Part shown: piece after piece, positions 15,170 to 64,000 of the stretch
Layout of the letters: each line of letters starts with the position of its first letter
How positions within the stretch are numbered: position 1 is the first letter of the stretch
IMG/VR virus record: IMGVR_UViG_3300027754_000042
Length of the DNA: 64,000 bases
Reading direction: 5' to 3' (one strand)
From: a virus
Made by a program: the position numbers and the translations under genes
The notes under the pieces: generated by a model
Told to the model about the DNA's origin: nothing
Seen by the model: the letters and a program-made list of their open reading frames with translations, nothing else
The model's database searches: none

Positions 15170-15198
15170 TTGACAAACTCTTCAAATCTGTTTATAAT
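15170..15198 (+). promoter_or_regulatory. Consensus sigma70 promoter for the DNA modification operon
   Basis: TTGACA-N17-TATAAT. Confidence 0.85.
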
Positions 15199-15212
15199 GC
15201 AAATAATAGAGA

Positions 15213-16508
15213 TTGGACAAAACATTGACAAAATATATTCCATACACAGTTGACGATATCAAAAAGTCTTCAGCCCGAGAGCTATTCACCGTCGTATCCA
15301 CTTTTGCTGGTGGTGGTGGTTCATCAACTGGCTATCGCATCGCCGGCGGTAAAGTTATTGCCATGAATGAATTTGTAGAAGAAGCCATAAAAACATATTC
15401 AACAAATTTTCCAGATACCAAGATTATCCCAGGCGATATCAAAAAGCTTACTGGGCTTGATTTTCTTCGTGAAGCAAATCTCAAGCCTGGTGAACTTGAT
15501 ATCTTCGATGGGTCACCTCCTTGCTCCGCGTTCTCTGTTGCTGGTAAACGAGAGAAGCAATGGAAGGGTGCTATAAAGAAAACCGATAGCTCGTTTGAGA
15601 TTGACGAATATGGTGAGCTAGAATTCGTCGAGGGTGAGACGTTTACGAAAACAGGCATCAAAACTTATAGTGATGGTATGGTTGTTGAAGCTATTGAAGA
15701 TTTATTCCTAGAGTTCGTTCGCATCGCAAAAGATATCAAGCCTAAGGTTATCGTTGCAGAAAACGTCAAGGGTATCACAATGGGCGAAGCGCGCAAGAAG
15801 CTTGTAGAGTTTCAGAACGCATTTGAAAACATTGAACCTGGTTATGTTGTCACGCATCACGTTTTGAGCGCCGCAAATTATGGAGTTCCGCAAGCGCGTG
15901 AGAGACTGTTCTTTGTCTGTGTGCGTAGTGATGTTGCTAGTGTGATCGGTATGAACTGGATGAATGCCGAGACAATGACAAAGCCACCCGAAACAACTCC
16001 TATCATTCGTTCTGGTGGGCGTCGTCTAAGCGAGAATAGTCAACACATCTCATTGCGCGAAGCAATTGAAGATATCGAAAATGATCCTGAAGAAATCCAG
16101 ATGCTTAAGGATTATGTGATGGGTGGCTTTCAAAAAGATTGGATCACGAAGCTTCCATTTAATCCCAAGCGTCATACCAAGCCGAGCGATACTGAGTATC
16201 GGTCATGGAATCCTACAGGTTCATGTTTCAATATGATTCGCCCTTGCCCAGAACTTCCATGCCCTACTCTAACGCAGAGAGGGCAACAGCTTTCTGTGTC
16301 TGGTGTGTTTCATTACGCAGAGAATAGAAAGTTTACCATCAAAGAGTTGAAACGAATCATGAGTCTTCCAGAAGACTACATATTGTCTGGAAACTTTGAT
16401 AAGCAAGCAGAACGAATCGGGCGCATGGTTGCTCCTAAAATGATGGGTGCGCTTGCGTCTAACATCTACAATAAAATATTGAAACCCTATAAGGAAGCTA
16501 CACAATGA
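15213..16508 (+). CDS. C5-cytosine DNA methyltransferase homologue, probable carboxymethyltransferase
   Basis: Motifs I (FAGGGG), IV (GSPPC), VI (ENV), VIII (QARER) and IX present; motif X reads GRMV rather than GN(S/A)V; TTG start (15213 or 15225). Confidence 0.9.
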   Translation: MDKTLTKYIPYTVDDIKKSSARELFTVVSTFAGGGGSSTGYRIAGGKVIAMNEFVEEAIKTYSTNFPDTKIIPGDIKKLTGLDFLREANLKPGELDIFDGSPPCSAFSVAGKREKQWKGAIKKTDSSFEIDEYGELEFVEGETFTKTGIKTYSDGMVVEAIEDLFLEFVRIAKDIKPKVIVAENVKGITMGEARKKLVEFQNAFENIEPGYVVTHHVLSAANYGVPQARERLFFVCVRSDVASVIGMNWMNAETMTKPPETTPIIRSGGRRLSENSQHISLREAIEDIENDPEEIQMLKDYVMGGFQKDWITKLPFNPKRHTKPSDTEYRSWNPTGSCFNMIRPCPELPCPTLTQRGQQLSVSGVFHYAENRKFTIKELKRIMSLPEDYILSGNFDKQAERIGRMVAPKMMGALASNIYNKILKPYKEATQ

Positions 16509-17197
16509 CAGGTCAGTTCACGTTCGCGACACGCGAAGAAGGCTTTGATACGCACATCGACACATCCATTCGCGGCTACAGTGATCTGTGGCAAGACGTT
16601 GTGGATATCTCCCAGTACTTTGTTGAGAATGATACCAGCGTGGTCGATATTGGTTGCTCGACAGGTAAGATGTTAAAGAGTATGATTAACCAGAACACGT
16701 TTGCACCTAACGCAATTTATACAGGTCTAGAGATTGAACCTGAGTTTTGGGGACCATACGATCAGGACGAAAAGGATTTCGACAACCTCACATATCACAA
16801 GGGTGATGCTAATGGGTATTATTTCGACAACTGTTCATATGTCACGTCCATCTTCACACTTCAGTTCATGCCGTACCATGATCGTATGCATCTAATCAGT
16901 CGCGTATTCAATGGATTGAACCCTGGTGGTGCTTTTGTCTTCGCGGAGAAGACGATGCCTGAGAATGTACGAATCCATGAAATTCGCACCTTTACCTATT
17001 ATGATTACAAGCGCCGCACGTTTACCACCGACGATATCATGGACAAGGAGCATCAGCTCCGTCATATGACCAAACCAAACACCCGTGGCGAGCTAATCAA
17101 GGTCTGTCTAGACGCCGGCTTTCAAGCGGTTGACACCTTCTGGCAGAACCACGCCTTTACAGGGTTCATTGCGTTGAAGGGAACGACACAAAAGTAA
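16505..17197 (+). CDS. cmoA: Carboxy-S-adenosylmethionine synthase homologue (CmoA family)
   Basis: FTF...F..HI..SI.GY, DIGCSTG, FTLQF, GLNPGGAFVFAEK and AGF...F.GFIALK align by eye with E. coli CmoA. Confidence 0.85.
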   Translation: MTGQFTFATREEGFDTHIDTSIRGYSDLWQDVVDISQYFVENDTSVVDIGCSTGKMLKSMINQNTFAPNAIYTGLEIEPEFWGPYDQDEKDFDNLTYHKGDANGYYFDNCSYVTSIFTLQFMPYHDRMHLISRVFNGLNPGGAFVFAEKTMPENVRIHEIRTFTYYDYKRRTFTTDDIMDKEHQLRHMTKPNTRGELIKVCLDAGFQAVDTFWQNHAFTGFIALKGTTQK

Positions 17198-17262: not shown

Positions 17263-17301
17263 CAATGGCTTAGCGGAGATGATCCCTAAGCCATTGTTTT
17301 T
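17263..17301. terminator. Inverted repeat / probable terminator at the boundary of the early region
   Basis: CAATGGCTTAG-N12-CTAAGCCATTG followed by TTTTT. Confidence 0.55.
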
Positions 17302-17317
17302 GCTTGTTTTTCTAGCC

Positions 17318-17346
17318 TTGACAATGAGGTGGTTCTTTGCTATTAT
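17318..17346 (+). promoter_or_regulatory. Early sigma70 promoter
   Basis: TTGACA-N17-TATTAT with extended TG. Confidence 0.8.
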
Positions 17347-18692: not shown

Positions 18693-20990
18693 ATGGCTGA
18701 GAAACTGGTATCGCCTGGCGCGCTTGACAAGTTGGCTAAACTGCTTGCGGCTGAGAACATTGCTGTGGAACATGCACCCGTGGTCACCGCGTCTTTTGAT
18801 GTTAAGAACCGCGTCCTACGTCTGCCTATGTGGCAGGAAATGACCGAAAGCTTGTACCATCTGCTGGTGCTTCACGAGGTCGGTCATGCACTGGAAACTC
18901 CGTGCGATGGCTGGAAAGGTGCTATTGACGCCGTTGAGGAATCAGACGGCCGCCGTGTGTCGCGCACATTCCAAGGCTATTTGAATGTTGTTGAGGACGC
19001 GCGGATTGAGCGTAAGATTAAGGCTAAGTTCCCCGGCTCGCGCCGTGATTTTCACGATGGCTACAAGTGGCTTTTTGAGTCGGACTTTTTCAATGTGAAG
19101 TCTACCAATCCCGATGAACTGTCAACCATTGACCGTATCAACCTTTACTTCAAGGTTGGTTCTCATATGCAGGTGCCGTTCTCGGATGAAGAACAGGTGT
19201 TTGTAAAGCGGGCTGAGGACATCCACACATGGGATGAGGCCGTCCAGCTTGCTAATGATCTCCTTGCTTTTGCCAAAGAAAAGGCGGAGCAGGAAGAGGA
19301 AGACCTGGATGAAGAAAAGCGTGACGTTTCTACCCGCACCCTTGATGATGATGACGGCGAGGAAGGTGACGATTGGGAAGATGGTGAAGATGGCGATGAA
19401 GGGTTAAAAGGCGAGTCCGATCAAGATGAAGTCGGCGATGGTAATGATGAGGACAAACCGAAGCCCTCGCGCCGTAAGTCTGGTGGTCAGATAGAAGAGG
19501 CTACCACTGATAAGGCTCTGTCTGATAAGATGCAGGATTTGGTTGATCCTACTATGCTCGGCAGGGAACTCCGTTATGTGGTGCTGCCGAAGGATATCAA
19601 TTCGGATAACTTCATTGTGAAGTATGGCGATATCCTGAAGTATGCTCAGCATGATATCAACCTCGGCAAGGTGGCCGATTATCAAGCTTTTGCCAATCGT
19701 GTGTTCTCCAAGTTCCGCAGCGACAATAACAATGCCATCAATTATATGGTCAAGGAGTTTGAAATGAAGAAGGCTGCTACGGCCTATTCCCGTAGCAAGC
19801 AATCCAAGACTGGTACCATTGATACGACAAAGATCCATAGCTATAAGTTCAGCGAGGATATCTTCCGTCGTCTCACGGTACTGCCGACCGGCAAGAACCA
19901 CGGGCTTGTCGTCTATCTCGACCTATCTGGTTCCATGTCTGGTCATATCCGCGGTGCGGTTGAACAGATGATTACCCTGGCTACTTTTTGTCGCCGTGCT
20001 AACATCCCACACCGTATCTATGGTTTCTCGACCAGCCTGGCTGGTGCAGGTTACAATCATCCTGCTACTCTGAAATACCACGATATGCGGTCTAAAATCA
20101 ATACGGAATGGCGTAACATTGACAATCGTGTTGACAAGCATTTCGTATACCCTAACACGGAACTGTCACTGCTGGAATTGTTTCACGAGGGCATGAACCT
20201 GCGTGATTTTAATTTCATGTGTTCCACATTGCTTATTTCAGGTATGATCCAGAACTATACCACATGCGATCTGGTTCCTGCTGGCTATAATAATGTGAAG
20301 CATTATGTCCGTGATGTTATCTTCAATAAATTCCGTGACCCGTTTGAGTTCCTCAGCCTTGGATCGACCCCGTTCAATGATTCCTTGATGCTTGGTCGCG
20401 ATATCATTACCAAGTTCACGAAGGAGAAGAACCTCGAGATTGTGAACATGGTAACTATCACTGACGGCGAGTCCGATCATCCATCATATATTCTGCACAA
20501 GCAGAATGGGCAACGTGGTAATTTGGCTGGTTCTAGTATCATCCACAATAACCGCACCTCGTTCCTGACCGACGAGCATAGCAGGCGCCAAATTCGTTTG
20601 AATTTTGAGCATAACCATCAATATACCTCAATGTATGCTAAACTCATCCGTGACACGATGAAGGTCAATCTTGTTGGCTTCTACATTACCAACAGTGCCC
20701 GTGACGTTACCAGCGGCGCCCAGATGGCTGGGTCAAACTGGTATGATGCTGACCTGATGGCTAAGTCTTTCCGTTCTAATCAGTACGCAATTGTGCCTGG
20801 CTTGTATGGTCACAATGAGTTCTATTATATCAAGGGCGGCAAAGACTTGCGTACCGAGAGTTCTGGCATGGGTGATATTGCTGCGGATTCTTCGAAGGGT
20901 AAACTGAAAACCGCGTTTGCCAACGCACAATCCAAGCGCGGTACGTCCCGTGTTGTGTTGGCTAAGTTTATCGACAAGATCGCCGTATAA
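18693..20990 (+). CDS. Metallopeptidase-like plus VWA domain protein (CobT-like AAA ATPase partner)
   Basis: HEVGH, NVVEDARIE, an acidic linker, MIDAS DLSGSM and ITDGES. Confidence 0.8.
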   Translation: MAEKLVSPGALDKLAKLLAAENIAVEHAPVVTASFDVKNRVLRLPMWQEMTESLYHLLVLHEVGHALETPCDGWKGAIDAVEESDGRRVSRTFQGYLNVVEDARIERKIKAKFPGSRRDFHDGYKWLFESDFFNVKSTNPDELSTIDRINLYFKVGSHMQVPFSDEEQVFVKRAEDIHTWDEAVQLANDLLAFAKEKAEQEEEDLDEEKRDVSTRTLDDDDGEEGDDWEDGEDGDEGLKGESDQDEVGDGNDEDKPKPSRRKSGGQIEEATTDKALSDKMQDLVDPTMLGRELRYVVLPKDINSDNFIVKYGDILKYAQHDINLGKVADYQAFANRVFSKFRSDNNNAINYMVKEFEMKKAATAYSRSKQSKTGTIDTTKIHSYKFSEDIFRRLTVLPTGKNHGLVVYLDLSGSMSGHIRGAVEQMITLATFCRRANIPHRIYGFSTSLAGAGYNHPATLKYHDMRSKINTEWRNIDNRVDKHFVYPNTELSLLELFHEGMNLRDFNFMCSTLLISGMIQNYTTCDLVPAGYNNVKHYVRDVIFNKFRDPFEFLSLGSTPFNDSLMLGRDIITKFTKEKNLEIVNMVTITDGESDHPSYILHKQNGQRGNLAGSSIIHNNRTSFLTDEHSRRQIRLNFEHNHQYTSMYAKLIRDTMKVNLVGFYITNSARDVTSGAQMAGSNWYDADLMAKSFRSNQYAIVPGLYGHNEFYYIKGGKDLRTESSGMGDIAADSSKGKLKTAFANAQSKRGTSRVVLAKFIDKIAV

Positions 20991-26111: not shown

Positions 26112-26669
26112 ATGGCAAAATACTTAGATAGATCAGCGATAGAAGACCTTGACTCTTATAGACAAGAGATATTTGCGATTAGAGAAAGAGCATATGCAAA
26201 GCATGGTATTGATATATTGGATAACGATACTCTAAGCTCCGTATCAATCTACAATTTGGTTTCTCAATATGATCCAGATTACAATATCAACTTTGCTAGA
26301 AATGGTGAAGATGCGATTTCTAATCGAATTGAAATTGAACAGAAATGTAGCAGAGTCGAAAACGATAAGAAACTGGCTTCATTTATGTTTCATGCTATGG
26401 GTAACCTTATCTATGATCGGTATATCTTTGTTGCGCGCCACAAAGACAATCTAGACCTACTCAGGATCTATGATATAAGTCAGAAAAAAAATCTGAAAAT
26501 CATTCATAAGCATTTGACGGCAGAACGAGATGCTTGGTTAGAACGAGGCAGAAAAGATCAAAGCAAAATGAAAAGGGATGTCGTTTTGCTGTCTGAGAAA
26601 ATGATGAAAGAACAACTGACAAGCTTATCTAAAATCAAGATATATACATGTGAAGTTATTAGAGGTTGA
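26112..26669 (+). CDS. Hypothetical protein, possible restriction-like endonuclease
   Basis: EDA...EIEQK PD-(D/E)XK-like pattern; overlaps the downstream methyltransferase ORF. Confidence 0.45.
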   Translation: MAKYLDRSAIEDLDSYRQEIFAIRERAYAKHGIDILDNDTLSSVSIYNLVSQYDPDYNINFARNGEDAISNRIEIEQKCSRVENDKKLASFMFHAMGNLIYDRYIFVARHKDNLDLLRIYDISQKKNLKIIHKHLTAERDAWLERGRKDQSKMKRDVVLLSEKMMKEQLTSLSKIKIYTCEVIRG

Positions 26670-26671
26670 CA

Positions 26672-27922
26672 ATGGCAAATCTGATCTACACAGAAAATGA
26701 ATTTCTATCGCTGTTCAGTTTTAACAAGACAGTCAGTTTTGAAGACTTTAGCAACCAAATTTCTGTGTTGAATGGTAGCGATACCTCAGGAAATTTCGTC
26801 GTCAGGAGCGACCTTGATACATTCATCGAAAGAGTTGCAAAAAGCGATGACAGAAAAGATAGACTGAACTTATACAAAGAACAAATGTATAAGATGCTCG
26901 TTCTAGAACCAGAGGTAGCTCTTACAGAATGGTTTCGTAAGACTGCTAAAATCGCAGAACCGATTGAGCATTATTTTCAAATACCACCCGCTCAGATTTT
27001 AAATGGTGACACATTTGCTGGCCGTACATACAGCAAATATGGTCGTATCTGCAAAAACATTAATTTCGAAAAATTTTTCAGCACACGCAAACTTTACAGT
27101 AACGATTTCGAGTACACTTTTGGTTTACTAAAAGTGATGTTTGAACAATTTAAAATACGCAACAGTTTAGCCAGCCCCGCTTTCTTTGACCATATATGCA
27201 AAATTGAAAACAGTAACTATGGACAATTCTGGACCGATTTTATGATTGGTTGTAATAGGGCTAGCATTTTTAATCCAGCAACATACAAGGGCATCTTAGA
27301 CGAAATTCTTCCTGGTAAAATTTTGTTTGCTCCAGTTATGGGTTGGAATAGCTATCAGTTCGCATTTTATTCGAGCGGATTCGAGAAGTTTATCGCAACT
27401 GATGTTATACCTGAGGTTGTTGAAAACGGAAAAACATTGCACAAAGTCTGGCAAGATTTTTCAGACAAGAGTTTTTTTGGAGTAGCGGATAAGTCTGTCG
27501 ATCTATATTGTTGCCCCTCAGAAAAACTGAAGTCGATTGGATTCGAAGATACATATCGAGAGAAGGTAGATGCGGTTCTGTTTAGCCCGCCATATTATGA
27601 CCTTGAAATTTATGATAGCGAAGATCAAAGTTTTACCAATTATCCTAACTATGAAGAATGGCTAGAAAAATACTGGGAAGCTACCGTCCTTACAGCAAAG
27701 GAAGTGATGAAGCCAGATGCCAATTTTGCGTTTGTTATCTCTAACTATAGAAATAAAGCCAAACAAGAAGTGAATATCAGCGAAGATATGATGAGAGTGG
27801 TAAGCAAGCACCTGAATCTTAAAGCCAGATATAAGATTCAGTGGTCAGCTATTGGAACTGGACGGCAAGCAAAAAAAACTAGAGGCGGAAATTTTGAAGA
27901 CCTTTGGGTTTTCACAAAATAG
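26672..27922 (+). CDS. Amino (N4-C/N6-A) DNA methyltransferase
   Basis: Degenerate motif I FAPVMGW, motif IV FSPPYY and YEEW...YW. Confidence 0.75.
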   Translation: MANLIYTENEFLSLFSFNKTVSFEDFSNQISVLNGSDTSGNFVVRSDLDTFIERVAKSDDRKDRLNLYKEQMYKMLVLEPEVALTEWFRKTAKIAEPIEHYFQIPPAQILNGDTFAGRTYSKYGRICKNINFEKFFSTRKLYSNDFEYTFGLLKVMFEQFKIRNSLASPAFFDHICKIENSNYGQFWTDFMIGCNRASIFNPATYKGILDEILPGKILFAPVMGWNSYQFAFYSSGFEKFIATDVIPEVVENGKTLHKVWQDFSDKSFFGVADKSVDLYCCPSEKLKSIGFEDTYREKVDAVLFSPPYYDLEIYDSEDQSFTNYPNYEEWLEKYWEATVLTAKEVMKPDANFAFVISNYRNKAKQEVNISEDMMRVVSKHLNLKARYKIQWSAIGTGRQAKKTRGGNFEDLWVFTK

Positions 27923-33812: not shown

Positions 33813-34397
33813 ATGACACAACTCTGGAGCATAGATTATAATGATTATACAAAAAATAAAGATTTAAAATGGCAGCATTGTTCCAGAACAAATAGATATG
33901 TTTATGTCACGCCTAATGGCATAAAAGATATCTACAACTTCTGTAAAATTTATAAAACTATATCAATTTTAGATTATGGATGTGGCTTTGATTATAGCTA
34001 TGCAAAAGATGGATCGCATCAAAAAAAAATTACTGATAATATCAATGTTACTAGATATGACCCCTTTATCGAAGAATATTCTATTCAGCCTTCACAAGCT
34101 TCAGATATCGTAGTATGCAATAATGTATTAAACGCGATTGAACCTGATTTTTTTGATGAGGTTATGAAAAACATTTATAATTTGACAAACAAGGCCGTAA
34201 TATGTAACATAATTGTTCCCGGGATGCACATATCAACAGCCGAAGAATTTATCAAGAAAATAGCAAAAAGTAAATTCACGATCAAAGAATTTACATATAA
34301 AACTCTAAATGAATGGAAAAATATCGTGGGCTACGCCACCCACGATTCTGATAATGATAGCAATGAAAAAGTTTTGTATATGTTGCTAGAAAAATAA
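33813..34397 (+). CDS. Class I SAM-dependent methyltransferase-like protein
   Basis: Motifs ILDYGCG, YDPF and DIVVCNNVL; visibly AT-rich. Confidence 0.7.
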   Translation: MTQLWSIDYNDYTKNKDLKWQHCSRTNRYVYVTPNGIKDIYNFCKIYKTISILDYGCGFDYSYAKDGSHQKKITDNINVTRYDPFIEEYSIQPSQASDIVVCNNVLNAIEPDFFDEVMKNIYNLTNKAVICNIIVPGMHISTAEEFIKKIAKSKFTIKEFTYKTLNEWKNIVGYATHDSDNDSNEKVLYMLLEK

Positions 34398-58977: not shown

Positions 58978-59180
58978 GATACTTCTCTTACATGATAACT
59001 GGTGGCGAACGAGGCGAAACCTATGAAGTTGAAACAGTATCAGAAGAACAAATTCTTGATTGGGATTGGCGCGATTGGGTGCGCGAAGAACGTAAAAAAA
59101 CAAACCCAAAAGAACTAACAAAAGAAAACTGTATCAATGATTGGGTTATTTTGAATAACGCATGGGAGAGTACGCCTTGA
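58974..59180 (+). CDS. Hypothetical protein
   Basis: GTGA overlap with the previous gene; CINDWV...AW. Confidence 0.55.
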   Translation: MRYFSYMITGGERGETYEVETVSEEQILDWDWRDWVREERKKTNPKELTKENCINDWVILNNAWESTP

Positions 59181-60145
59181 GAAAAGTGTCAATTCTGTTC
59201 CCTCGTTTGGATGTGACATTCAAAGAAGGACCTGTACCCGAAGGTCGTGGCGAAATTCCACCAATTCGTATTCATTGGCAAAATTTCAAAGATAAGCTAT
59301 TGCAGCATCATATGCTGAAGGCTGGCGATAAGGTTTCAATTATTGAAAAGCCACTTTGGCAATTTACGACTGAGTTCGTAGAATCACTAGACGCTGATAT
59401 CGTGTATATTCCACATAAGTCGACCGATACTTTTCCTGTGAGTGGAAAAGAAGTTCGCTACTATATGCAGAGCGTATTTCCTTTTCAGTTTTATATTGAC
59501 TCAAAGGGCTTTGCTGGTGGTAGCTCAAGGTACCCATTTGACTATGATTGGAACCTTGAGATACCACACGGAAGCTTCTATGCCCAGATGCAGGCTCGTG
59601 CGCTCGCGGGTGAGAGTAAGTTCGCACAACCGCCTATGGGTAAAATTACAGTTGAATCTGATGGCCCATATGTTCTGTTTCCATGCCAGATTCCACACGA
59701 TGAAACAATCAAGTACCATTCCGATATCTCGGTGTTAGATGCATTGATGGCTACATGTGAGGCTACAAAGAAGCTAAATATGCCACTGGTGGTAAAAGGG
59801 CATCCTGTTAATCCAGGTAGCATGGCACCGTTATATCAAGCGGTTAAGCAATACGATCATGTTCATTGGGTCGATGATGTGTCCATTCACGATTTGATCC
59901 CCAACGCACATGCGGTTGTCGTCGTAAATTCTGGGACTGGTATGGAAGCAATGCTTCATAAACGCCCAGTGATTACCTTTGGTAGATGTGAGTATGATTG
60001 CGTGAGTAACAAGGCTACGGCGGATAATATCGTTGACGTTCTCAGGTCTCCTGTGTTCAACGAGAAGGAAGTACGAGCATTTTTCGAGTCGTGGTACGAA
60101 TGGACTTACGACACAAGAAACGGTAATTCTTTTAACGGGCTATAA
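59162..60145 (+). CDS. Capsule polysaccharide synthesis (KpsS/KpsC-like) glycosyltransferase
   Basis: Motifs Q.PHD, VKGHP and VVNSGTGMEA. Confidence 0.7.
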   Translation: MGEYALRKVSILFPRLDVTFKEGPVPEGRGEIPPIRIHWQNFKDKLLQHHMLKAGDKVSIIEKPLWQFTTEFVESLDADIVYIPHKSTDTFPVSGKEVRYYMQSVFPFQFYIDSKGFAGGSSRYPFDYDWNLEIPHGSFYAQMQARALAGESKFAQPPMGKITVESDGPYVLFPCQIPHDETIKYHSDISVLDALMATCEATKKLNMPLVVKGHPVNPGSMAPLYQAVKQYDHVHWVDDVSIHDLIPNAHAVVVVNSGTGMEAMLHKRPVITFGRCEYDCVSNKATADNIVDVLRSPVFNEKEVRAFFESWYEWTYDTRNGNSFNGL

Positions 60146-60156
60146 GGAGAACGAAT

Positions 60157-60522
60157 ATGTCATATTGGGGTTATCACCTCCTATTGGACTGCGCTGAATT
60201 GGATCACGCAGCAATCACAGATGCGGAGAACATCTATTATTTCGTCAAGCGTTTGGTCAAAGATATTGATATGGTCGCTTATGGTGAACCACATATTGTT
60301 AACTTTGGCTCAGGCAACAAGGCCGGCTACACATTGGTACAGTTAATCGAAACATCAAATATCGTAGCGCATTTTGTGCCAGATGATGGCATGGGTGGTA
60401 ATGCTATGTACCTCGATGTTTTCTCATGCAAGGAATATGACGATCAGATTGTTATTCAGTTGGTCAAGGAATATTTTGGTGCAAAGTATGTGCGTCCAAA
60501 CTATCTCACAAGACAGGCGTAA
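60157..60522 (+). CDS. speD: S-adenosylmethionine decarboxylase family (pyruvoyl) protein
   Basis: Motifs G.HLLLD, GYTLVQLIETSNI..H and YLDVFSCK. Confidence 0.85.
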   Translation: MSYWGYHLLLDCAELDHAAITDAENIYYFVKRLVKDIDMVAYGEPHIVNFGSGNKAGYTLVQLIETSNIVAHFVPDDGMGGNAMYLDVFSCKEYDDQIVIQLVKEYFGAKYVRPNYLTRQA

Positions 60523-60527
60523 TTGTC

Positions 60528-60556
60528 TTGACAAAGAGTAAAGATGCATATATAAT
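60528..60556 (+). promoter_or_regulatory. Consensus sigma70 promoter for the tRNA
   Basis: TTGACA-N17-TATAAT. Confidence 0.85.
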
Positions 60557-60570
60557 ACACAATAGAAATT

Positions 60571-60645
60571 GCGGGCGTAACTCAGTGGTAGAGTGTCAGC
60601 CTTCCAAGCTGTTCGTCGCAGGTTCGAACCCTGTCGCCCGCTCCA
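60571..60645 (+). tRNA. tRNA-Gly (anticodon TCC)
   Basis: Acceptor stem GCGGGCG/CGCCCGC, D arm ACTC/GAGT, anticodon loop CTTCCAA, TTCGAAC T loop and encoded CCA. Confidence 0.95.
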
Positions 60646-60758
60646 AGTTTCACGAGTGGCTAGAAATGGCCCTCGTGATTGCTATCTGTAACTGGATGGC
60701 ATTGAGCGTAGGAATCTTCCTACTTTTATATAATGTCTTTTTAGACTAAGGAGTAAAT

Positions 60759-61304
60759 ATGAAAAACACAATCACTACCATCTTCGCACTTGCACTAAGC
60801 ACTTCCGCTTATGCAACTGACGTACCAAGCGGCAAGGTCGCTCCAAAGGCTCCCGTACCCGTCTTCGTAAGCGCCGACAATTATATCGGTGTTAATGTCG
60901 GAGCGAATGTCACTGATGGCGTCAACAAACAAGCTCCTACAGCTTTCGGCGTTATTGCAGGTCGTAAGGTTCTAGGTTTTGGTCCTATGGGTTTCACAGC
61001 AGAAGCCGCATATGATTACACCAAGGGCAATACTAACATGGTTTCAGGCAATGCGCTTGTATCATATGCGTTTGGTCCTTTCTCTCCATACGCTCTTGGC
61101 GGTGTTGGCTATCGTTTTGTTGATAGCAAGCTTCCTGTTCGTGTTGGTGGTCCTAAGAATGAGGCAGTTTGGGCAGCTGGTGGTGGTATTAAGTTTGCGG
61201 TCACGTCCGCAATTGAGCTTGATGCTCGGTACCATCGCGTAGAAAACTTTGACTACAAGCGTCCCGAAGATCGTGTGTCTCTTGGAGTTAATTATAAGTT
61301 CTGA
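60759..61304 (+). CDS. Outer-membrane beta-barrel protein (Omp25/RopB-like)
   Basis: Signal peptide, TDVPSGK.APKAP N-terminus, PYALGGVG and C-terminal GVNYKF BAM signal. Confidence 0.8.
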   Translation: MKNTITTIFALALSTSAYATDVPSGKVAPKAPVPVFVSADNYIGVNVGANVTDGVNKQAPTAFGVIAGRKVLGFGPMGFTAEAAYDYTKGNTNMVSGNALVSYAFGPFSPYALGGVGYRFVDSKLPVRVGGPKNEAVWAAGGGIKFAVTSAIELDARYHRVENFDYKRPEDRVSLGVNYKF

Positions 61305-62437
61305 TGATGAAAATATCCCTCACTGCGGATAAGTTCGGTTATTATGAGGTGGGGGGTAGAACCACATATAGTAAAATGGAAGCCCTTGAGTGGGCTTCCA
61401 CTACTAACATGAAGGCGGAGTGGAATTTTAATCGCTCCGCCTTTGAGTCTATGGATTGGAAGAAAGAGCCTACTGGTTCTCTTTGGGAAATGTACAAAGA
61501 GAGAGCGAGGCAAATCCGTGAAGAATACGATTATGTTGTATTATGGTATAGCGGAGGTTCTGATAGTCATAATCTACTTTGGGCATGGTTGGATGCAGGT
61601 CTTAAAATAGACGAGATTGCAACAACATGGAATTACGGTGCTACTGGCGATAAACAGAATCACTATAACGCAGAAATCACAAATGTGGTTTTGCCAGATA
61701 TCGCAATGCTGAAAAATGCTGGTTACGAATTCGAGTTTCGTTTGATTGATATCTCACATTTCTGTATAAAACTTTTTAGTACATGGAATACAGAGTTTGA
61801 ATATAACGTCAACTTCCATCTCAGTCCAAACAATCCTGCAAAACACATATTCCGAAATGAGATTGACGATTATAAAAACATGATCGCTGATGGTAAGAAG
61901 TTATGTTTTGTTTGGGGTAAAGAAAAGCCAGTTCTTCAATATGAGAACGGTAAACATTTCTTCGTGTTTTCCGATAACATTGACAACACGGTTGGTCCAT
62001 ATGTTCAGAAAAAGTATCATCAAGGGTGGTATGATGAGCTATTCTATTGGACACCTGATATGCCACAGCTGGCTATCAAGCAAGCGCATGTTCTAAAGAA
62101 CTATGTGGAATCATGTATTGACGAATCGCAGTTCGAACCAAAGAGCGACACTAAATTTCAAACAGGTGGCTATTCGAAACGATTCGATGGGTATCTAAAA
62201 GATGCATATGTCAAGACAGCTATATATCCAAAATGGTCAAATGATATTTTCTGTAATGGTAAAGCTGGATCTATGACATATAGCCAGCGTGATAGATGGT
62301 TCATCAAGTCGTCATTGCTCGAAAGACATAAGTTCATGTCAATAATGGATTCAATATATTCAGGTATCTATAAGAAAGATTTCTACGACAGACATAATTA
62401 TTATCCATTTTACAGCTCAAGGTATTTTTTAGAATGA
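61304..62437 (+). CDS. Adenine-nucleotide alpha-hydrolase (PP-loop) family protein
   Basis: WYSGGSDS PP-loop and GKEKP. Confidence 0.6.
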   Translation: MMKISLTADKFGYYEVGGRTTYSKMEALEWASTTNMKAEWNFNRSAFESMDWKKEPTGSLWEMYKERARQIREEYDYVVLWYSGGSDSHNLLWAWLDAGLKIDEIATTWNYGATGDKQNHYNAEITNVVLPDIAMLKNAGYEFEFRLIDISHFCIKLFSTWNTEFEYNVNFHLSPNNPAKHIFRNEIDDYKNMIADGKKLCFVWGKEKPVLQYENGKHFFVFSDNIDNTVGPYVQKKYHQGWYDELFYWTPDMPQLAIKQAHVLKNYVESCIDESQFEPKSDTKFQTGGYSKRFDGYLKDAYVKTAIYPKWSNDIFCNGKAGSMTYSQRDRWFIKSSLLERHKFMSIMDSIYSGIYKKDFYDRHNYYPFYSSRYFLE

Positions 62438-62886
62438 ACAAATTTTATGAGACGCACACGCGCACGATAGCGAAGACGCTGACGATCAGAGTTCTATTCA
62501 CTCTAAGCCATCTCTTGAATGGATTCATCGTTACCGGTAGTTTCGTTATTGGAGCGCAGATTGCAGGCGTAGCAGCCATCATCAATATGGTTTTATTTTG
62601 GATTCACGACCGTGCGTGGGAATTTGCGGCATTCAATAGAAAACCAGGTGACACCAAGTTATTTGTTGACGGGCACCCAAGAACTATTAGCAAGAGCATA
62701 ACGTGGCGGGCACTAATCACAATCAATAATTTTATGATTCCATTCATAATGACTGGCTCTTGGCAATCGGCTATAGCGTTCCTAGGAATAGCTACCGTAC
62801 TAAATATTATCGTATATTATGCTCATGAACGAGTTTGGAATGGTGTTGTTTGGGGAAAGAGAGAAAAAGATGTCGTTCAGCAATAA
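62434..62886 (+). CDS. Membrane protein with two DUF2061-like repeats
   Basis: RT.(A/S)K....R...H(D/E)R.W occurs twice. Confidence 0.75.
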   Translation: MNKFYETHTRTIAKTLTIRVLFTLSHLLNGFIVTGSFVIGAQIAGVAAIINMVLFWIHDRAWEFAAFNRKPGDTKLFVDGHPRTISKSITWRALITINNFMIPFIMTGSWQSAIAFLGIATVLNIIVYYAHERVWNGVVWGKREKDVVQQ

Positions 62887-64000
62887 AACATTTTGTACGA
62901 TGCCTTGGTCGTCTATTATGATTTTGCCATCAGGTGATTTCAAGATTTGTTGTTTCACAGGCCACAAGACATCAGATGGTCGTGATAGCCATGGTGTTGC
63001 TATAGATGATGACGGCAATTCAATGAATGTCCTGACGCATTCTATCAAAGAAGCAATGAATAGTAAATGGCATAAAGAATTGCGAGTAGCGCAGTCACAA
63101 GGCAAGCGCCACGAGATATGCAAGGTGTGTTGGGATCGTGATGATGCCGCAGCGACACATGATGAGGCTGCAACATCATTGCGCGTCGTGCGAACCTACT
63201 ACCAGAATGCTGATAGCGGAACAAATCAATCCCGTAAACATTTTGGTGGGCATCCTATGACGGGTGCTGTTCTACCTGAGACTGCATCTGATATCATGAC
63301 CGCTGGTGGTTCGATTGACATGATGCCAATCAGCTTGGATATGCGCTTTAGCAATCTATGCAATGCTAAATGCATCATGTGTGAACCTCTCTATAGCACA
63401 CTTTGGTACGGAGATCAAATCGACGTAAATCAAAAAGATTTTTTTGATGTAGGACCAAAACGATATAACATCATTACCAAAACATCTCCTACCGGCCGCA
63501 AGACATATACCGATGACATGCCAAATTGGAATGATGACCCTCGTTGGTGGAAACAGTTTGATGAACTAGCACCACATCTTCGTCACGTTTATATCACAGG
63601 TGGCGAACCTTTCATCCAGCCTGTCCATGATGTATTCATCGAAAAGCTTGTCGAGCGCGGCTTCGCAAAAAACATTATCATCGAATATGATACCAATCTC
63701 AGCGTTTTGAATCCAAAGATTTTGAATTATCTCACAGAGTTCAAAGATGTTATCATTCGCATCAGTGCCGATGATGTCGGCGAAAGGTATAACCTTGTTC
63801 GCTTTCCATTGAAGTTTGATCGCATCACCAAGAACATAGAACTACTAAAGGAATATGGGCTCCACGAAAAAATTGTCAATATCACATCATGCATTGGTAT
63901 TCATACCATTTTTGCTCCACTTACCATTCACAGATATTTTAGTGCGCTCGGCTACGATAAGTATGTGTTCCGTATCCTTCGCTCTCCACCACAGGTCGAT
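62870..64000 (+). CDS. Radical SAM protein with an N-terminal twitch/SPASM-like domain (truncated at the window end)
   Basis: Manual translation gives FCTMPW...ICC...CKVCW, NLCNAKCIMC (CxxxCxxC) and TGGEPF; open to the window end. Confidence 0.88.
   Translation, partial: MSFSNKTFCTMPWSSIMILPSGDFKICCFTGHKTSDGRDSHGVAIDDDGNSMNVLTHSIKEAMNSKWHKELRVAQSQGKRHEICKVCWDRDDAAATHDEAATSLRVVRTYYQNADSGTNQSRKHFGGHPMTGAVLPETASDIMTAGGSIDMMPISLDMRFSNLCNAKCIMCEPLYSTLWYGDQIDVNQKDFFDVGPKRYNIITKTSPTGRKTYTDDMPNWNDDPRWWKQFDELAPHLRHVYITGGEPFIQPVHDVFIEKLVERGFAKNIIIEYDTNLSVLNPKILNYLTEFKDVIIRISADDVGERYNLVRFPLKFDRITKNIELLKEYGLHEKIVNITSCIGIHTIFAPLTIHRYFSALGYDKYVFRILRSPPQVD

Follow-up and report, generated by a model that had tools for sequence, protein, structure and literature searches.

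A cmoX-cmoA gene pair of an uncultured freshwater T4-like myovirus is very probably a member of the published phage DNA carboxymethylation system

The virus record IMGVR_UViG_3300027754_000042 carries two overlapping genes, cmoX and cmoA, whose products are homologues of a DNA cytosine C5-carboxymethyltransferase and of a carboxy-S-adenosylmethionine (Cx-SAM) synthase of a phage clade, respectively. The stretch analyzed, called the window here, comprises 64,000 nt of this larger genome, and all coordinates refer to it; labels made of L or G and a number denote related viral contigs or records that were compared with the window. An earlier note on this DNA, written from the sequence alone, had described one consensus promoter ahead of both genes and a C5 methyltransferase homologue that overlaps a CmoA homologue through an ATGA. 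The promoter, both open reading frames (ORFs) and the overlap are present (Table 1).

The promoter ahead of cmoX is an early-type sigma-70 consensus, TTGACA-17-TATAAT. Perfect matches to this consensus occur six times across the window vs 0.07 expected by chance, and from their sequence they are read as the probable early promoters of the phage. The shared stop and start codons indicate likely translational coupling of cmoX and cmoA; the overlap of the two genes is kept among relatives, but in another register. Beyond cmoA, a hairpin with a T run behind it resembles an intrinsic terminator, and past this hairpin comes the next promoter-like site (11/12 match). The single promoter, the ATGA overlap and the terminator-like hairpin together argue for a self-contained two-gene cmoX-cmoA unit.

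Two in-frame start codons, both TTG, are candidates for cmoX. The second (protein start M-T-K-Y-I-P-Y) is homologous to the start of the relatives, which is ATG (M-S-A-Y-V-P-Y). The consensus promoter also precedes cmoX in the near-identical contigs L002, L004 and L013, while the 75-81% relatives L014 and L034 have no promoter there and begin cmoX with an ATG right behind the peptide deformylase gene, to which it is coupled. Comparison of positions 15170-15240 with L014 and L034 shows that this promoter and a TTG start are peculiar to the close lineage of the window.

Table 1. Coordinates of the features discussed, as positions in the window.
Feature	Position	Strand	Remarks
sigma-70 consensus (early-type) promoter, TTGACA-17-TATAAT	15170..15198	+	12/12 positions match
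cmoX, DNA cytosine C5-carboxymethyltransferase homologue	15225..16508 (alternative start 15213)	+	427 aa from TTG 15225; 431 aa from TTG 15213
catalytic Cys codon, SPPC motif (motif IV)	15522..15524	+	aligns with SpCmoX Cys98
29-residue insertion behind catalytic loop (motif IV)	approx. 15555..15650	+	from alignment; no counterpart in SpCmoX
motif X Arg codon CGC (ERIGRMV)	16422..16424	+	equivalent to SpCmoX Arg350
ATGA stop/start overlap of cmoX and cmoA	16505..16508	+	read from sequence
cmoA, carboxy-SAM synthase homologue of phage clade	16505..17197	+	230 aa
intrinsic-terminator-like hairpin, then T run	17263..17311	+	-22.6 kcal/mol, z-score -4.8
next promoter-like site	17318-17346		
ribosomal protein S21 gene	22783-23019		
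gene for weakly methylase-like protein	26666-27922		418 residues
class-I methyltransferase-like gene	33813-34397		194 residues
auxiliary block	59162-64000		
SAM decarboxylase gene	60157-60522		in auxiliary block
tRNA-Gly(UCC)	60571-60645		in auxiliary block
orphan PP-loop ATPase P0001 (VVLWYSGGSDSH)	61304-62437		motif SGGSDS; no Pfam or PHROG family

A CmoA-CmoX-CmoY system has been demonstrated experimentally in Synechococcus phage S-B43 (Yang et al., Nat Commun, December 2025; PMC12783734). This is the cyanophage precedent that the earlier note had mentioned, and the chemistry, whose novelty that note had left in doubt, is thus already published. In S-B43, SpCmoA makes Cx-SAM with a kcat of 2.33 per s, faster than E. 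coli CmoA, and SpCmoX, which accepts Cx-SAM only and not S-adenosylmethionine (SAM), writes 5-carboxymethylcytosine (5cxmC) at GC sites (PMC12783734). Arg350 of SpCmoX contacts the carboxylate of Cx-SAM in crystal structure 8YF3, and the R350N mutant is dead; SpCmoY ligates glycine onto the carboxymethyl group, and native S-B43 DNA contains the glycine amide only (PMC12783734). A database survey in the same paper, in which the SPPC motif was one of two filters applied for CmoX candidates, counted 5,615 candidate CmoX proteins, 4,257 CmoA proteins and 2,251 ligases; its supplementary text lists neither the IMG/VR contigs considered here nor the Synechococcus phage S-CRM01 (PMC12783734).

The window CmoX has the C5-cytosine methyltransferase fold (PF00145, 5.3e-51), and by sequence it matches PDB 8YF3, which is SpCmoX with Cx-SAM (E 7.6e-103), far better than M.HaeIII (1.5e-20) or M.HhaI (1.3e-14). 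An AlphaFold2 (AF2) model, built from 13 relatives, likewise finds its best structural match in 8YF3 (template modeling score 0.91, root-mean-square deviation 2.5 A), well ahead of M.HaeIII and M.HhaI. The segment DGSPPCSAFS aligns with SpCmoX residues 93-102, which places SPPC on S95-C98, and the two residues of the active site that contact the cytosine, the Glu (AENVKG) and the motif VIII Arg (PQARER), are present and invariant among relatives. The motifs FAGGGG, NEF, SPPC, ENV, PQxRER and GRMV are invariant across the 13 relatives.

The Asn-to-Arg change that the earlier note had placed at motif X is borne out: in alignments, the Arg of IGRMV falls on R350 of 8YF3 and, in M.HaeIII, on the Asn of IGNAV. 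A basic residue in place of this Asn is also the hallmark of the engineered M.MpeI N374K and homologous M.CviPI mutants of the Kohli laboratory, which use Cx-SAM to write 5cxmC (PMC13288465); for M.MpeI, the effect had been cited in the earlier note and is documented. Those carboxymethyltransferases are laboratory mutants with Lys that keep some use of SAM and act on CpG or GpC targets, whereas the window CmoX is natural and has Arg. Two insertions, both of low confidence in the AF2 model, also set the protein apart from SpCmoX: the 29-residue insertion behind the catalytic loop, which is common to L013, L014, L015, L023 and L033 and not found in L024, L026a, L030 or SpCmoX, and a second one of 13 residues in the variable region.

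CmoA aligns with SpCmoA over its full length (48.5% identity over 231 residues, E 1.5e-68) and matches phrog_4752 (2e-53) and the E. coli CmoA structures 4GEK and 4IWN (E about 1e-19; 27.5% identity). It has the same fold as the E. coli enzyme and retains the SAM-binding, cofactor-site residues Y39, D62, G64, S66 and F137 (E. coli numbering); with SpCmoA it shares identical residues at the E. coli sites Y39, D62, G64, S66, E89, F137, E199 and R203. The E. coli CmoA/CmoB pathway, which forms 5-carboxymethoxyuridine (cmo5U), differs in that, besides the low identity, a Glu stands at the Arg199 position in the window protein, no CmoB is found within the 64-kb window and the predicted acceptor is a DNA cytosine, not tRNA.

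The window cmoX-cmoA pair is very probably a member of the published phage CmoA-CmoX DNA carboxymethylation system, arranged as a two-gene early transcription unit. Homology, residues and operon structure were obtained from the window itself, and the chemistry would be that of SpCmoA and SpCmoX. Both proteins fall into the enzyme families of S-B43, with identities of about 46% for CmoX and about 48% for CmoA. As in S-B43, CmoX has the SPPC cysteine and the Arg that binds Cx-SAM, the genes are tightly linked and the phage is a T4-like (Kyanoviridae-type) myovirus. Unlike S-B43, the window is without CmoY, has the order cmoX then cmoA with an ATGA overlap and its own consensus promoter, and comes from freshwater lake metagenomes; its CmoX lies in a sister subclade, a, with 35% identity in the target-recognition region and the 29- and 13-residue insertions.

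In the proposed mechanism, CmoA would convert SAM and host prephenate to Cx-SAM. CmoX would flip the target cytosine out, the SPPC cysteine would attack C6, and the carboxymethyl group of Cx-SAM would be transferred to C5 while the motif X arginine holds the cofactor carboxylate. The product would be 5cxmC in phage DNA, blocking restriction enzymes. That the phage makes its own Cx-SAM and carboxymethylates its DNA had been proposed in the earlier note, and the Arg350 equivalence and the 48% identity to SpCmoA support the proposal.

Several points weigh against this assignment. CmoA scores below the curated cutoffs of TIGR00740 (91.1 vs 193.3 bits) and NF011995 (72.5 vs 285), and its Glu182 takes the place of E. 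coli Arg199, whose salt bridge binds the carboxylate of the cofactor (Byrne et al. 2013; PMC3663124). The AF2 model of CmoX is of moderate confidence only (predicted local distance difference test, pLDDT, 72.7). The function given here for CmoX, a subclade-a enzyme, is a predicted one. Finally, the genome is much larger than the 64 kb of the window, so that CmoY or another ligase may be encoded elsewhere in it; in relatives, CmoY moves among three positions.

As to CmoA, it is by far the best-scoring family for the second protein despite the sub-cutoff scores, and SpCmoA shares both the sub-cutoff score and the Glu at the Arg199 position, though it is a proven Cx-SAM synthase. An invariant Arg (Arg186 in the window protein) follows four residues, or one helical turn, past Glu182, and the same pattern is seen in SpCmoA and six other phage homologues. 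Since SpCmoA outpaces the E. coli enzyme, the Glu-then-Arg pattern is probably a trait of the active phage CmoA clade and not a defect, and activity in this clade would not hinge on the precise Arg199 site. The carboxylate contact in phage CmoA may have shifted by one helical turn.

A reading of the transferase as an ordinary SAM-dependent 5-methylcytosine methyltransferase, with CmoA serving tRNA cmo5U formation or draining host SAM, is very improbable. It would agree with the generic Pfam and PHROG labels (DNA methylase and tRNA methyltransferase), and SAM depletion by CmoA has been raised as a possible side effect (PMC12783734). However, wild-type SpCmoX uses Cx-SAM but not SAM, and both the window CmoX and all relatives retain the Arg; the window also has no CmoB with which Cx-SAM could be put onto tRNA, and the strict coupling of cmoX and cmoA in many phages argues for a shared pathway.

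This coupling, which fits the carboxymethylation assignment, extends well beyond the window. More than 20 diverged viral contigs carry the cmoX-cmoA pair, and given this recurrence the pairing is evidently no chance event. In 24 IMG/VR relatives the cassette occupies one syntenic place, after gp46 and the peptide deformylase gene, in the order gp23, UvsY, UvsW, gp47, gp46, peptide deformylase, [CmoX (CmoY) CmoA], CobT-like, AAA5 ATPase, gp45, gp44. The identical CmoA protein occurs on 21 contigs, and the six listed derive from six samples. The window capsid gene is closest to those of cyanomyoviruses and shares about 72% DNA identity with that of cyanomyovirus S-RIM2; the virus itself is an uncultured T4-like myovirus of freshwater lakes. 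In a look-up, its ribosomal protein S21 gene matched only two Saccharibacteria metagenome-assembled genome contigs, which is uninformative as to the alphaproteobacterial host suggested in the earlier note.

As the earlier note had remarked, no amide-ligase gene is adjacent to the pair, and the same holds for all 64 kb of the window: neither tblastn (best E 0.15, confined to the PP-loop motif) nor a profile of CmoY (best E 1.7) found this ligase there. In 30 further ORFs of the window, namely those of at least 150 residues and the 121-residue SAM decarboxylase, Pfam scans showed no Asn-synthase-like or other AMP-forming ligase. Among relatives, CmoY is located between cmoX and cmoA (L015-L023 and L033), upstream of cmoX (L024, L026, L027 and L032) or, in the 75%-identical relative G005, directly behind the DNA polymerase gene gp43 and about 18 kb from the cassette. 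The G005 CmoY gene (L039:1501-2328; G005 19411-20202) overlaps the end of the gp43 gene. In the window this site is empty: directly behind gp43 stands the gene that in G005 comes after CmoY. No CmoY is found in the 139-kb relative G002, though cmoX and cmoA are present, or in the complete 178,563-bp genome of Synechococcus phage S-CRM01 (HQ615693). Judged by these gene positions, CmoY is a movable accessory, with three positions among relatives, and is missing from some genomes.

S-CRM01 is a cultured freshwater cyanomyovirus and resembles the window in having an Arg-type CmoX (ERIGRMV) that overlaps a CmoA, 55% identical to the window CmoA, and in having no CmoY. It differs from the window in its gene order (cmoA then cmoX), in a CmoX variable region of type b and in the location of the module between gp62 and regA. 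No report on DNA modification in S-CRM01 was found in the literature searched.

Because no CmoY is present in the window, plain 5cxmC is the predicted end mark unless the phage has an unlinked enzyme that acts on it, and the chances that it, and not the glycine amide, is the final one are about even. A different outcome of the same CmoA-CmoX chemistry, in which 5cxmC is only an intermediate and an enzyme encoded outside the window, either CmoY in another place or an ATP-dependent ligase not related to it, makes the amide or another derivative, is possible but rather doubtful. It draws on the native DNA of S-B43, which is glycine amide only, on the CmoY genes that most subclade-a relatives have beside CmoX, and on G005, whose distant CmoY shows the ligase to be mobile within these genomes; the window moreover encodes an orphan PP-loop ATPase, P0001. 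Against it stand the lack of CmoY in the 64 kb, both syntenic positions included, and in G002 and the complete S-CRM01 genome. Nor does the orphan PP-loop family behave as a CmoY replacement, since it is found in G003 (CmoY present) and G002 (CmoY absent) alike.

The second part of the prediction, with unamidated 5cxmC as the end mark, concerns the sequence at which that mark would be written. A maximum-likelihood tree splits CmoX into types a and b with 100/100 support, SpCmoX being of type b and the window CmoX of type a; the two proteins are 61% identical in the catalytic part vs 35% in the target-recognition region. Because the window CmoX is of the sister subclade and its target-recognition region has diverged, its target probably differs from the GC of SpCmoX. 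Tandem type-a and type-b CmoX genes are found between CmoY and CmoA within single phages (L026-L029), from which non-redundant specificities are inferred. The tandem Arg-type paralogues (L026:688-2956, L027:3518-5786 and L029:3968-6236) are about 30% identical in the target-recognition region, and their arrangement suggests that two carboxymethylation specificities may exist in one genome. The full combination, in which a subclade-a CmoX writes unamidated 5cxmC as the final mark of virion DNA and does so at a motif that is not GC, has somewhat less than an even chance of being right.

A more distant CmoX homologue, 37% identical, is encoded by the cultured Methylophilales phage Melnitz-3 (L048:3998-5215). 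Where Arg350 or Asn would stand it has Leu (ARIGLMVAP), it contains the segment SPPCPPFS, and no CmoA or CmoY is found in the 141-kb Melnitz-3 genome.

The orphan PP-loop ATPase P0001 has at least 315 metagenomic homologues and none in cultured phages. Its AF2 model is confident (pLDDT 91) and has a PP-loop fold, with weak PDB matches to MnmA, LarE, and carbapenam and beta-lactam synthetases. As the one ligase-like candidate of the window, P0001 was considered as a substitute for CmoY and rejected, as its likeness to SpCmoY amounts to 29 PP-loop columns only and the family is present with or without CmoY. The family sits in radical-SAM/TctC/FA-hydroxylase islands. In the large phage contigs L008 and L009, up to five P0001 paralogues share an island with genes for radical-SAM/SPASM, FA-hydroxylase, TctC and NMO proteins, and the island adjoins a fibre-like gene; this island may be a tailoring pathway not yet characterized. 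In the window, P0001 lies in an auxiliary block that also contains genes for a capsule-synthesis-like protein, an OMP beta-barrel protein, a DUF2061 protein and a radical-SAM/SPASM protein, together with the SAM decarboxylase gene and a tRNA-Gly(UCC).

Two further window genes resemble methyltransferase genes. The class-I methyltransferase-like gene, with weak Pfam hits, is located two genes past gp43, near the site that CmoY occupies in G005, and has no counterpart in five related records. The 418-residue protein encoded between the clamp-loader genes gp44 and gp62 has a weak match to N6/N4 DNA methylases and is a possible second DNA-modifying enzyme.

For the phages themselves the pair adds little new biology, the published CmoA-CmoX system being part of a conserved replication-gene block in widespread uncultured lake myoviruses. 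S-CRM01 is the obvious system for learning whether plain 5cxmC occurs as an end product in nature. Of the two well-supported CmoX subclades only one has been characterized, and a new natural target specificity would interest builders of carboxymethyltransferase-based sequencing tools. If unamidated 5cxmC is indeed the final mark and is written at a motif other than GC, this would be the first phage DNA in nature to bear 5cxmC as its terminal mark, as native S-B43 DNA showed the glycine amide only, and CmoX paralogues would have diversified in specificity.

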